A stretch of DNA of 64,000 bases, from assembly GCA_051294375.1 (NCBI GenBank), contig CM119263.1:30257376-30321375 (forward strand), read 5' to 3'. Numbering within the stretch: position 1 is the first letter of the stretch; every line of letters begins with the position of its first letter. The stretch comes from Paraspadella gotoi (lineage: Eukaryota > Animalia > Chaetognatha). The notes under the pieces were generated by a model. It saw only the letters and a list, made by a program, of their open reading frames with translations, had not been told where the DNA came from and made no database searches. This document shows, one piece after another, positions 20,961 through 63,594 of this stretch. The position numbers were made by a program, and so were the translations under genes.

Positions 20961-23900
20961 TCAGAACTGCGAGAGCGAACCACCGCCGCCGCCGCCCCCG
21001 CTTTGCGACTGGAAATACGCGCGGTCGCCTTGGTAGGTCGAGTCCTGAGTTGGAGGGAGGGGAAATCGGTAAAGATCGATAAAAAACAGTTATCTAACCG
21101 GTAGCAATGACTAAACTTCAAATATTAAAACAATTTTTTTGGGGCAATAATATTTCGATTCAAACGGACGTAAAACGACAACATTCCATCAAGTAAGATA
21201 TTAATGAATACTGAACCTCTTGGTACCTAGTTATATGCTTATCTTATCTTAGGCAAACATTCCCTCGTATAAAACTTCAAATTTTCTTAATTCTAATTTC
21301 CAATCTGCACGACATGTCTCCCCCCCCCCACCCAACCCCTTCTCCAAAAACGAACCTGCGAGAGAAGGGCGTCGGCCTGCGACTGAAATTCTCCTCCTCC
21401 GCCGGCGACGAAGGAATCCTGACTAAAGTCCGCCTGAGAGAATCCCGTCTGGGACAGGCCTCCGACCGAGAAGGCCCCCCCAGGCCCGCCGGGCTGAGAA
21501 AACCCTTGCGACATGGACTGGGACATGCCTTGCGACAGGCCTTGAGACATGCCCTGGGAGCCGGAAAATGCGCCCGCGGACTGAGACATGGACAACGGGC
21601 CGCCCTGCGATAGCGGCATTCCTTGGGTGAGGGGACCGCCTTGGGAATAAGGGTTCGTTCCATCCTGGAAACAAATAGGGGGAGAGGGAAGAGCGTTGAA
21701 AGAATAACAAAATAATAATTAATTTTGATTATATATTTTAAGAACGGTGTTTTTGATTCTAGTAATTACACACCTGACTATTTTGACTGCCAAACTGATT
21801 GCCGCCCGGTTTCCCTGCTCTCGCCGGTTTGCCCGATTTGCCGGTCGACGGTAGCCGCGGTTTGCCCGCGGAAGGTCTTCCGCCGGGCTGACCGTATGCG
21901 CCCGGTGGCTGCTGTCCGTAGTAGGGAACGGGGAGAGAGGGCGGAAGGAACATGCCGACCGGCACGGGGAGATTCATGCCGGCGGTTTGCGCCCTCTCCG
22001 CCGAGATGTAGCCGATTTGGTCGTGAGAAGAGCGAATGAAAGCGTCGCGTTGATTGTGCTGCTGCATGGCGGCTGCGTGGTGCCCGTTCATTCCCTGATG
22101 CTGCTGCAGAGGTTGTTGAGGAGACGAGACTCCGCCGTAACCCAGTCCGTTGTTGCTGCCGCCGCCGCCGGGGTGACCGTTGGGCATGAGGCCGCTCCTG
22201 TCGTAGGCGCTCCCGGGAATCATCACCTCGCGCGCGCTGTACATCGCCGTCACCATAAAACGCCCACCCTGATGGAAAATGAAAATTAGTCATAAAAAAT
22301 CGTCCCAAAGGACAAATTACATGATTCGAGCTATAAACTCATTTGCATATTACCGTGACCAATTTGAAATTATTATAATCTAAAAAAAAGTTTAAAATCT
22401 ACCATAACAAAACGAAGAGAGAAAAAACAAACGGAGACGAAAATAAAAGAAAGAATTGGCGAAGAAAGATGGGAGAAAGAATTGAGAATAAGAAAGGAAA
22501 AATGAAAGAAACAACCTGCGGGACGATAGCAATAATTTAATATCGTTTATGTTGACTAAACGAAGACTAAAATCTGTTTATTAACATCATTTTTGTTATT
22601 AATAATAAAAAAAATTATTGAAACAATAATTATTACAGAGTAAAATAAAAAAAGATGTTTGTTTATATATTGACTGACGGGATTGGTGGCGTTGACGAGT
22701 TTCCTCGGTTTGGAAAACTGGATGAGGGATTCCTTGAGGTTGTTGAGCGGACCCTCGACCAAGACCTTCTGCTCTTTGTAGTACGTGAGGAGGTGATTCC
22801 ATAATGGCTGACGAGACAGGATCTTGGGATTGCCGATGATCACCACGCCGTATTTGGCTCTGAAGGGTTGATATTTTGAAGAGAATTTAAATTCAATTTA
22901 AAATACAAATTAAATTCCAATATGTCAGGAACAAACTCTAACACAATAGCCCTCGGTCCAACCTGGTCAACGCGACGTTAAGTCGTCTGGGATCGTTTAG
23001 AAATCCGATGCCTTGATGTTCGTTGGCTCTGACGCAGGAGATGATGATGAAGTCTTTCTCTCGACCCTGGAACGAATCCACGGACGCCACTTCGATCTCC
23101 GAGTAGAGCTTAGTGTGGAGTGACCCGCTGAACTGCATGTACTGCACGATGTAGGCGCGCTGACCCTCGTAAGGAGTCACGATCCCGATCTGGTCGGGCT
23201 TCACTCCGACCTTCAACAACTTCGTCGACACCTTCTCCACCGTCGCCGCTTCCGTTCGATTTAAGTAAGACGTTCCTGCAGAAAAAGGAGATGGAAACTT
23301 ATAACCCACAGAACCATTACAACATCCACAGACCCTTTTTCCAACGCCCACAGACCCTTCCACAATCCATATCCGATCAACTCACCGGACGAGGACATTT
23401 CCTCTTGCCCCGTGGAGCAATAAAAGAACATGGGCTTCTCCGGCTGCGGCCAGGGAAAGTCTAGCGACTTTTTGGTTCGCTCCGTCGCCGTCACGCCGTT
23501 CTGCAGCGAACCCTCGTAGAAGATGTTGGAGGGAAATGCCGAAAGCGCCGGGTGCATGCGGTATTGCACCTGGAGGAAGAGGAGAAAAGAAGGTTGAGTC
23601 AGGTGGCGTTCTACGCTCGACAAATGAGTTTGATATATATCTCACCTGTAGCCTGATGGGGCGAATTCCAAGGACGACCAGGCGCTCGAAAAGAGACTGT
23701 GACAATCCGGCTTTGGCCGCCTTCTTGCACATGACCACGGGACCCAATTGACAGTGATCGCCGACCAAAACCAGCTGTGAACCGAAAAAGTATCCGCGTT
23801 TAAAAAATTTTAATAAAAAACGTAGTCCAAGATGGGCATGTCAACGTCGATATCGGACCTTCTCTATCGATAAATCCTATTCTTCCTAACACAACAGCGG

Positions 23901-26900
23901 CATAAACCCGACGACCATTCATAGCCTCGTCGTACCTGTCTGCATCCCAGCACGACGGGCACCATGCATTCCGGCTCCGTGGACTGAGTCGACTCGTCAA
24001 TGAGCACAGAGCGGAACTGGAATCGCGCGAGACGCGGGTCGCCTGCGCCGACGCAAGTGCAGCAGATCACGTCCGCGTTCTGAAGGCGACAAAGAGATGG
24101 GGTGAGAAGAACATTCGAAAAGGATGGAGTGGGAGAGAGAGAGAGCGAGAGATAAAAGACGGAAATTAAATGTGATAAAGGAGATGCGAATTGATGTGAT
24201 AAATTAATAATGACAAAGTGTACAAAAGTTTTAAAATAGCCGATTAAAACGTCAAACTCAAAACACGACAATATGCTGATGGGATTAAATTACAAAATAC
24301 TCGGCCTCCCGACCTGCAGCAACTCCTTCTCGCATTGTCTCTTTAAGGCCCTGTATCGCTTCTCGTCGGCGGAGGAGAGCTCCCCCGTCTCGTCTTTGAG
24401 CTGCTGCAACTTCTGAAACTCGGGGACGCTCTCGATGTTGCGGATCTGATTGTGCAGCGCGAGGAAGGAGACGGGAGATTCGATGGCCTCGCGGGATTTG
24501 GCCGAGAGGCGGACCACCTCGTTGGGGAGAGAAGAACGGAGCATTCATTAAATTAAATTAATTGTTTAATCAAAGGAATAAAACTAAAAAAAAAGGCTCA
24601 GCCTGGTACCTTGAGTCCAGTTCGGTGAATCTTTTCCGTCAGTTGGTCAACGGCGATGTTGGACGGAGCGCAGACGAGAACTTGGCCCTGAAGCGATTTG
24701 ACAGAAAAGCAATCAATCAATGTCACATTCCTACCAAAAAAAAAAATCCCTTCACTCCCCAAACCTGGTGCTGCTTGACGAGATGGTAAACCGTCGTGGC
24801 GGAGGTGACCGTCTTTCCGGTGCCGGGCGGACCTTGGATGAGCGAGAGCGGGCGCTGCAGGACCGTCTTGACCGCGTAGACTTGAGAGTGGTTGAGTTCG
24901 GGCAGACCCGGGGCGGAGAATCGCTTGGGGAGCTGACATTTGAGGACGACATCTTCGACCTGGGATAAGGAGGGAGTTGCGGGATGAAAGGAAGAGGAGA
25001 AGATGGTTTAATTTTGAGGAGACGAGGAACGACGACTCACCTCGTGACCCAATAGTTTGTGGTAGATGTAACCGGAGACGCTGGTCTCGTCCACGGCGAA
25101 GGTCTTCATCGCCGCCTGCATTCGGTCGAACGAAGTCGACTTCCACACAAAGTCGACCACGAAATTGTGGGTGCATTCCGTGGGCGCGCCAGAGCTGTTC
25201 TTCAGTTCGATGCCGACCTAGAAAGGAGGAAGGAGAGAGGGGGGGAAGGAGAGAGGGGGGGGAGGAGAGGGGAAAGGGAGAAAGAAAGATAAGGATCGAA
25301 ACGATCGAGATAATCATTTCATTTAATTTTCTCTCTCCTCACCTCTTCTCCCGTATTATTAGGAGTCTTGATGACGTGTCCCATTCCCGACCAGGGTTTG
25401 TGCAATTCGCCCAAATAACGAAGCCGCAGCTCGTCGCCGGTCATCAGTCGAAGTTCTGAATGGGACAATCAATAACAAGAATGATGAGAATCAAAGCGAA
25501 ACGAAACAAAACAAAACGAAAGACAAAAGGAGAAAAAGGAAACGGAAGGAACGAACCGTCGTCGTAAGTGTTGAAGACGAAGAAGGCGATGGCCTTCTTG
25601 TTGAGGCCAACATCCCATCTGACGACGATGTTGTCCTGCGTCTGCGATTCCTTCAACTTCCGGTCGTAGTCAGCTTCCAGTTTGACGAGGGGACCGAAGA
25701 TGTTCTGGTATTGGTAGGCGTCCTCGTATCTGGCGGAGGAGGACGAGGGGAGGCGGGATTTTAACGTCTTCACTCTTGAATTACAACACTTTTTTGAGTT
25801 GTTATTCTGTAAGCATATGATTCTTTGGACGTGGTTTTTTATGATATTTAATTATGAAAAATAATTGTAAAATAATAAATCAAAATATGTTATGGTGGAT
25901 CAAAATCCACCAACCGTTCATCAGCGGCCATTGGTGCAGGAGGCAAGTCATTCGCCTCCTAACCCAAAGGTCCGGGGTTCTAGCCCGGTGGTCGCCTACC
26001 TATTAAAAGGAACAGGGCGCTTAACCCGCCTGTTACACGGTGTTACAGCCTGATCCGAAGCTCAGGGACTGCTTATAATGAACGGTTCTGTCACTAATTC
26101 ACAACAATCATTACTGTCTCTTCAATGTAAATTTTTATTTCTATTTTGGCTGGCAGGTAAAAACCAGCAAAAAATACTATAACGAGTAATAAAACTATTG
26201 ACATTTGGAACTCTAGGAATATAAAAGAACCGTTTCGCTGAGCCTGCAGTGATTGGAATAAAATTTCAATTCAGCAACATAATCATATCCAAAATGGCCA
26301 TACTGGCCATACCTGGCCATAACTAAATCACCTGCGGCCTACAATTTCAAGTGAGCAGTTCTTGTCGCATACAATCTCAGTCTAACAACACCTCACCTCA
26401 ACAAGACTTGCTGCGGCTCCTCATCGACGCCCGGTTTCTCCAAATCCTCCCAATTGGCTTCGGGATTTTCCTTCCAGAGTTCTTCCATCTTGTTAATCTG
26501 TTGGGCGGAGATTTGACGCGAGCGGAGCTGTTCTTGGTCGGCGGGGATCTTGACCAACCAGGGAAGGAAACATCTGTCTTGGATCAGGGGCTGCCACTGG
26601 TTCGGGTCCCTTGAAGGGGTTAGAAGAAGCAAAGCGATTATTGATCGGAGCCAAGGTCAAAGACAGCGCTCTCTTTCTCTCTCCGCGCGCACCAGTTCAT
26701 ATCCTTCAAGCTGCTCTGCGTTGCGCAAGGCTGCCGACACAGCAGCACGACGACGGAGTCGGCCTTGGCGGGGATGAAGCCGAGGAGGAAGACGTTGCGG
26801 CAGCCGCAGTTGTAGCACTCGAGGATGGTCTCGCCCAGGGGGCCGTCCTTGTGGAGGGTGACCTCTTTGTGTTTGGCGCGGACCAGGTGGTTGATGATGT

Positions 26901-63400: not shown

Positions 63401-63594
63401 TCGTCGAGACGACGTGACCAACGCGGAAGAAAAAGTTGGAGAGGAAGGCGAACATTTCAGAGTTGAAATACTAGAAAAGGAATTGGAAAGAAATGAGTAA
63501 GGAATTTGTTAAGGGTAAGTTAATGACAAAAAAAACTTACCCTCGCGCATTTTCCGCTCTTTTTCGTCTCATTTTTCGAGCTTCGTCGCTTCAT
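57456..63594 (-). CDS. Patched-domain (PTCHD3/NPC1-like, sterol-sensing RND) multipass membrane protein with a long low-complexity C-tail
   Basis: N-terminal TM then LWLPKES, SSD motif LLGIGIDDMFV, TSLSDALAFAVG, second TM set with IGLGIDFSVHL, GLWHGLAFLPVLL. Exons 58503-58279, 58161-57926 and 57804-57456 splice in frame from the donor at ~58757. Confidence 0.85.

Follow-up and report, generated by a model that had tools for sequence, protein, structure and literature searches.

Operons rich in ribosomal protein genes have already been described in chaetognaths (PMC2481426; PMC12460157). In Spadella cephaloptera, a two-gene operon of RPS14 and PCNA has 3 bases between the poly(A) site and the following acceptor, and the main leader, SL2.0, which accounts for 70.83 % of leaders, is a spliced leader (SL) also found in Flaccisagitta enflata (PMC2481426). 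For Paraspadella gotoi, PMC12460157 places 18 % of genes in operons, reports that no leader is operon-specific and gives as the longest operon one of nine genes, which includes ribosomal, ubiquitin and proteasome genes. The present analysis concerns a 64,000-nt stretch of the P. gotoi genome (contig CM119263.1, positions 30,257,376 to 30,321,375; hereafter the window, whose own numbering is used throughout). In it, ten intact genes, PTCHD>RPS12>MUS81>FARSB>KRR1>RPL31>RPL18>RPS6>XPNPEP1>UPF1, lie head to tail on the minus strand over approximately 43 kb (20961..63594). This is very probably an arrow-worm operon, in which one pre-mRNA spans at least MUS81-FARSB-KRR1-RPL31-RPL18 and is cut to single mRNAs by trans-splicing. 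An earlier note on this DNA had presented the row as a candidate metazoan operon, which is less surprising given the chaetognath examples: on the features examined, the cluster is an SL-resolved operon of the chaetognath class, and the class itself is known.

Operons resolved by trans-splicing have also been described outside the chaetognaths. In Ciona intestinalis, 41 of 55 cDNAs have their poly(A) joined to the G of the acceptor AG, 16 of 18 operons lack AAT(U)AAA within 40 nt, and an oligo(dT) shift can make 3' ends look 2 nt short (PMC1488885). Ciona operons are mostly bicistronic (74 %), and tunicate operons have up to 11 genes (PMC4122922). SL1-type operons of Caenorhabditis elegans have intercistronic sequence that is scant or missing, and keep the canonical AATAAA, according to PMC1488885.

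Exon models were built by script on the minus strand of positions 16001-64000, with GT/GC..AG introns, and gave full open frames for all ten genes. Pfam supports each family from single-exon pieces, 17 of 21 of which matched; UPF1 has an additional AAA_12 match, and the PTCHD-like gene matches Patched on one exon (E 9.9e-07). The ten co-oriented genes of the earlier note are borne out by these open frames and families, although two of its names, PTCHD and XPNPEP1, go beyond Pfam, which gives only Patched/sterol-sensing and peptidase M24 domains. The stop-to-ATG gaps given there were reproduced exactly: 317 nt (PTCHD>RPS12), 352 (RPS12>MUS81), 612 (MUS81>FARSB), 291 (FARSB>KRR1), 282 (KRR1>RPL31), 469 (RPL31>RPL18), 340 (RPL18>RPS6), 401 (RPS6>XPNPEP1) and 1191 (XPNPEP1>UPF1). 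Ten independent genes would all fall on one strand with a chance probability of about 0.002.

RNA contigs were compared with positions 42850-52390, a region holding four of the nine gaps and four gene starts (FARSB, KRR1, RPL31 and RPL18). Four runs were found, and one of them (X1), which contained 0.58 of the sampled words, was alone used as evidence; merely 11, 3 and 1 records aligned in the other three (X2-X4). Fourteen of the 15 X1 joints among those listed are CT..AC and coincide with modelled introns, and the eight pieces listed have no letter that differs from the genome. One joint (44561-44884, AT..CC, with a 21-nt side) was dismissed as spurious. Depth in a plain intron bin (51463-51781) was 0.22 against 193, so there is little DNA in this run. 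X1 behaves as spliced RNA of the same species. Genes were not compared with one another by depth, for which contig coverage gives no valid ranking.

The evidence is most complete for RPL31. Its 5' contig (X1 record 2) begins with 26 non-genomic nucleotides and aligns from letter 27 at position 44895, directly after the AG at 44897-44896. The earlier note had proposed looking for a common non-genomic leader at this and other named AGs, and here one is present. The 26 nt are the last 26 nt of SL2.0 (Table 3 of PMC2481426, compared by eye), and the leader core is absent from the whole window. At the 3' end, a second contig (record 1) reaches 43342 and continues into 25 non-genomic As. The genome at this point reads ...GCTAG/ATTTG. 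The tail thus begins on the AG that occupies 43344-43343, and it is unlikely to stem from internal priming. Since the first A of the tail could be genomic, the spacer between RPL31 and RPL18 is 0-1 base. On the RPL18 side, the observed bin depth of 1452.6 is reproduced only with an aligned contig start at 43342, neighbouring starts giving 1447.3 and 1457.9, and a loose contig end at 42979 agrees with exon 3. From the start at 43342 we infer a leader on RPL18 as well, the RPL18 leader row not being among the loose-end rows listed. This is the only junction mapped on both sides by RNA. The 3' untranslated region (UTR) of the RPL31 mRNA contains neither AATAAA nor ATTAAA; the gap has a single AATAAA, at 43301, but this comes only after the poly(A) site. 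Because the RPL31 RNA thus carries a chaetognath leader at one end and poly(A) at the next acceptor AG at the other, the cluster is likely to be an operon.

Further upstream, a 6641-nt spliced contig (X1 record 3) contains the last exon of MUS81 together with FARSB and KRR1, spans the entire FARSB>KRR1 gap and ends at 44897. Seven FARSB introns and all four KRR1 introns appear among the X1 joints, and the KRR1 3' UTR is also free of AATAAA and ATTAAA. The contig end lies at the RPL31 acceptor and, being tail-less, is a mere hint of a poly(A) site; a 2-nt oligo(dT) shift like that in Ciona may explain its exact position. At its other end the contig holds 273 nt more than the coding-exon models of MUS81 account for. 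The segment 50299-50557, spliced out of the contig, contains a palindrome (inverted repeat I3, arms 50361-50408 and 50479-50526) and two AATAAA. A related piece of the palindrome is found at 41391-41421, and the donor of the segment, AG/GT, is also the top-scoring acceptor of the MUS81>FARSB gap. The segment may be an intron in the FARSB 5' UTR, or its cis-splicing may compete with trans-splicing. Taken together, the X1 records link the five genes from MUS81 to RPL18 across four gaps, with differing strength.

A scan of public metagenome contigs for the leader gave 105 matches at 104 loci, of which 98 have it no more than 10 nt from their 5' end. ATT follows the leader directly in 19 of the 98, against 2 of 63 cis-acceptors of the window (p 0.003); both RNA-mapped sites, RPL31 and RPL18, read AG/ATT. 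When the ten gene models were compared with the 104 loci by tblastn, only RPS6 (L043, 89 % amino acid identity) and XPNPEP1 (L006, 72 %) matched, each on a leader-bearing homologue; 25 of the loci contain only a short flank. Two long open reading frames (ORFs) are present in 7 of the 80 loci that have at least one. Leader-led two-gene contigs in relatives include the Pfam-checked, unrelated pairs RPL10-RPS16 (L023, gap 292 nt), EF1A-RPS18 (L032, 583 nt) and glutaredoxin-like-kinesin (L069, 52 nt), and a further contig (L003) which we take to be RPL10A-RPS8. No leader-led start inside another locus was found among the 104. In four loci (L027, L083, L103 and L104) the leader is internal to the contig; in the first three it is followed by an identical GT-led sequence, and L027 (224-1030) has the leader twice, at a spacing of 695 nt, each copy followed by a GT donor (fold z -3.66). 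Such copies are as expected of SL RNA genes. Five A-ending leader-led contigs do not end in AG; as their A runs of 8-9 may be genomic, they neither test nor support a rule of zero spacing. The L043 contig also shares a conserved stretch with the RPS6 3' region around AG 36706, for which an alignment score at least as high arose in 3 of 500 shuffles, and a shared word of at least 11 nt in 42 of 500. This would be modest support for that candidate acceptor.

Several points weigh against the operon reading. The same-species RNA all comes as assembled contigs from a single run, which is classed as RNA in its record only by a guess, and a contig across two genes is no proof of a single transcript. 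The comparison covers four of the nine gaps. Among the loose-end rows listed, the leader is seen for one of four gene starts (RPL31), and record 3 shows a leader at neither FARSB nor KRR1 and ends at 44897 without a tail, although assembly clean-up can presumably drop such leader and tail branches from contigs. A matrix built from the 63 cis-acceptors was applied to 10 regions, with 300 dinucleotide shuffles each, and the best acceptor-like AG in these regions was no better than the shuffles (p 0.08-0.81), so that the motif argument is weak on its own; the two RNA-supported acceptors themselves reach no more than 4.6 and 2.2, where the median of the cis-acceptors is 10.9. Between XPNPEP1 and UPF1 the gap extends over 1191 nt and has two AATAAA (28108 and 27784). 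In addition, a gene antisense to XPNPEP1 and a 3.7-kb intron in RPL18 leave room for internal promoters.

The six acceptor sites that had been named before fared accordingly: RNA supports two (44896 and 43343), motif scores lift none above the shuffles, and for MUS81 the proposed site at 56198 (score -0.6) gives way to 56406 (6.8). The suggestion that several gaps lack a sense AATAAA stands, four of the nine having none. At the RPS12 candidate acceptor, a GT donor follows 14 nt on (57203-57217, minus strand), which points to a first exon that is very small and non-coding, with a short intron in the 5' UTR.

Beyond the five RNA-linked genes, the operon probably takes in RPS12, RPS6 and XPNPEP1, each considered separately; their gaps are 340-401 nt, and the last two have leader-bearing homologues. 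For PTCHD and for UPF1 the chances are about even, UPF1 being the weakest member, and it is somewhat doubtful that all ten genes form one unit, which may start at a 5' boundary outside the window. The principal alternative concerns this extent, and could about equally be right or wrong: a core from approximately RPS12 or MUS81 to XPNPEP1 would be flanked by UPF1, and perhaps PTCHD, as separately promoted genes that are nevertheless trans-spliced. A GC-richer patch near 28100-28300 could then drive both UPF1 and the antisense gene, which encodes a putative major facilitator superfamily (MFS) transporter. This patch has a GC content of 0.52 at 28100-28299 (0.25-0.39 in most neighbouring windows), the two AATAAA of the 1191-nt gap fit a break at this point, and the nested plus-strand gene requires a promoter. 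Trans-splicing is also much wider than operons in P. gotoi, where 10,197 of 21,072 genes are trans-spliced and only 18 % are operonic (PMC12460157). However, the patch lacks CpG enrichment (observed/expected 1.0-1.1, below its flanks), the PTCHD>RPS12 gap is short and free of AATAAA, and AATAAA follows the UPF1 stop (20588 and 20249), as expected of a terminal cistron. A split of this kind is compatible with the operon proposed here and limits only its extent. The polycistronic unit resolved by trans-splicing that the earlier note had envisaged is supported in its middle, by a leader at one named AG and poly(A) at another.

Within the operon as read here, one upstream promoter would generate a polycistronic pre-mRNA. 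At each internal AG, the spliceosome would provide the downstream gene with the capped leader, and by this cut it would also release the upstream mRNA, ending ...AG, which would be debranched and then polyadenylated without a hexamer signal. A route of this type has been proposed for Ciona and is here somewhat favoured, because the RPL31 tail sits on the trans-splicing bond and the RPL31 and KRR1 3' UTRs are hexamer-free. As in Ciona, poly(A) falls on the G of the acceptor AG (at one junction) and AAT(U)AAA is absent within 40 nt upstream in these two 3' UTRs; the phylum is different and the leader unrelated. The fullest form of this proposal, in which all ten genes over 43 kb are one unit, longer than any chaetognath operon so far described, every internal 3' end is splice-made, the arrangement evolved in a protostome independently of Ciona, and an antisense gene and intronic small nucleolar RNA (snoRNA)-like units undergo transcription or processing inside the unit, is unlikely to hold as a whole.

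The transcript could also be polycistronic with 3' ends made by ordinary cleavage and polyadenylation at or near the acceptor, so that a given precursor could give rise to only one of the two mRNAs, upstream or downstream, as in C. elegans operons of the SL1 type. The present locus shares with these the near or complete lack of intercistronic sequence and of an operon-specific leader. The FARSB AG at 50299 is preceded at some 30 nt by AATAAA (50331), and the candidate MUS81 acceptor at 43 nt by ATTAAA; mutual exclusivity of this kind is raised in PMC1488885, and the 3-base spacer reported in PMC2481426 would be consistent with it. However, the KRR1 and RPL31 3' UTRs, at both RNA-mapped boundaries, lack AATAAA and ATTAAA, unlike the C. 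elegans operons; AATAAA is found only before the FARSB AG, and record 3 has lost the segment with this hexamer (50331) by splicing. Ordinary cleavage is accordingly an improbable source of these ends. Operons of the C. elegans SL2 type and those of Oikopleura are similar in that co-oriented growth genes are resolved by trans-splicing. The spacer of SL2 operons is about 100 nt, and their leader is a dedicated one, in contrast to the 0-1 base and the commonest general leader here.

A compact cluster of monocistronic, trans-spliced genes, each with its promoter in the 3' region of the gene upstream, is a still poorer prospect. Trans-splicing without operons is common in chaetognaths (PMC12460157), and contigs can join abutting transcripts, the joined contig then reflecting an assembly path. 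Under independent cleavage, though, it would be rare for a hexamer-free RPL31 tail to coincide with the RPL18 acceptor to within one base of a 469-nt gap, an argument from coincidence also made for Ciona in PMC1488885. A contig over the FARSB>KRR1 gap needs gap-spanning reads, and the DNA background is low. It is hardly conceivable that the pyrimidine runs before the ribosomal protein ATGs are transcription starts of the terminal oligopyrimidine (TOP)/TCT motif class and not acceptors: T runs precede an AG at RPS12, RPL31, RPL18 and RPS6, but the RPL31 RNA does not contain the T run and has the non-genomic leader joined directly behind the AG, which refutes this for RPL31, and the RPS6 homologue is leader-capped.

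Compared with the described chaetognath operons, the cluster is alike in its leader, identical to SL2.0 over 26 nt, and in its combination of ribosomal protein and metabolism genes. As in the RPS14-PCNA operon, the poly(A) site almost touches the next acceptor, with a spacer of 0-1 base here and 3 there (PMC2481426). The nine-gene P. gotoi operon has, by its description, another gene set, and ten genes would be one more, if confirmed (PMC12460157). A literature search that did not use the gene names returned no paper on this gene set; the cluster, or part of it, may already be in the operon table of PMC12460157. The coordinates of the features are collected in Table 1.

Table 1. Genes, RNA-supported junctions and other features of the P. 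gotoi cluster (window positions; a slash marks a splice site)
Feature	Position	Strand	Details
Patched/sterol-sensing-domain gene (PTCHD-like)	57456..63594	-	1252-aa model, 22 exons; last three low-complexity, unverified
RPS12	56547..57138	-	142 aa; candidate acceptors AG 57219-57218 and AG ending 57366
MUS81	50817..56194	-	853 aa, 7 exons; highest-scoring candidate acceptor, AG 56407-56406
GT..AG segment, 259 nt, MUS81>FARSB gap	50299..50557	-	spliced out in record 3 (letter 3094 to 3095)
FARSB	47196..50204	-	579 aa, 10 exons; candidate trans-splice first base 50596 or 50298, both AG/ATT
KRR1	45143..46904	-	391 aa, 5 exons; candidate acceptor AG ending 47011, 46997 or 46957
RPL31 trans-splice acceptor AG	44896..44897	-	leader joined at 44895 in RNA contig
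RPL31	43734..44860	-	123 aa, 3 exons; mRNA = leader+44895 to 43343+poly(A)
AG at RPL31 poly(A) site, also the likely trans-splice acceptor of RPL18 (zero spacer)	43343..43344	-	RNA contigs
RPL18	38823..43264	-	188 aa, 4 exons; second intron 3657 nt
RPS6	36902..38482	-	251 aa; candidate acceptor AG 38526-38525
Aminopeptidase P (XPNPEP1)	28882..36500	-	652 aa, 15 exons; candidate acceptor AG 36707-36706
UPF1	20961..27690	-	1210 aa, 19 exons; candidate acceptor CAG/ATT, first base 27847
Nested antisense MFS transporter gene	30248..32638	+	511 aa, 10 exons, in XPNPEP1 intron 10; outside operon
Three tandem H/ACA-snoRNA-like units	55155..55915	-	MUS81 intron 1; units approximately 305 nt, cores approximately 140 nt

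The nested MFS gene is absent from the gene list of the earlier note. One of its exons matches Pfam MFS_1 (E 2.7e-05, below the curated cut-off), and it is presumably SLC49-like. Its ATG is 33 nt from an XPNPEP1 exon, so its 5' end must overlap XPNPEP1 antisense. The long RPL18 intron (39324-42980, against a median of 110 nt) contains GAC/AAC repeats of degenerate sequence and, near 40760-41350, a stretch that is richer in GC; it may hold an internal promoter or a mobile element.

In the H/ACA-snoRNA-like units of MUS81, conservation of the cores stops at ACA. The 5' hairpin folds in the two copies that were folded whole (z -2.80 and -2.14), and the third, 5'-cut copy has z -0.55. The first two units end in a pyrimidine tract and TTTAAAG/GTAAGT; these ends look like recursive splice sites and would put each core in its own lariat. 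Rfam searches at E up to 1 gave no match over the units; across the window they gave 45 matches, none at the gathering score and mostly microsatellite-driven microRNA hits. An element resembling a short interspersed element (SINE) occupies 44298-44516 in RPL31 intron 1, with an inverted copy, 86 % identical, at 25885-26097 in a UPF1 intron; its very deep, many-variant coverage in X1 is that of a high-copy transcribed repeat. The octamer ATGCAAAT occurs seven times (22341, 30670, 43577, 44684, 51468, 58549 and 59555), mostly in introns and often within a common context of approximately 25 nt (repeat family D19). The first 20 kb of the window are gene-poor, as had been stated, but not empty: they contain a BAMBI-like ectodomain exon (7414-7740, minus strand, Pfam E 7.6e-06) and a plus-strand ORF (2448-3008) with no Pfam match.

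For annotation, the cluster is a warning, as contigs fuse these genes and cut-offs on gene distance may split operons of this kind. Should all ten genes prove to belong to it, the unit would be larger than the nine genes given as the maximum for P. gotoi. With a poly(A) site that falls base-exactly on the acceptor AG of the following gene and has no hexamer, the arrangement known from Ciona recurs in a distant phylum. Whether the upstream 3' end is a product of trans-splicing, and whether operons like these arose by convergence, were both left open in PMC1488885, and the RPL31/RPL18 boundary provides a defined substrate for the question of splicing-made 3' ends.

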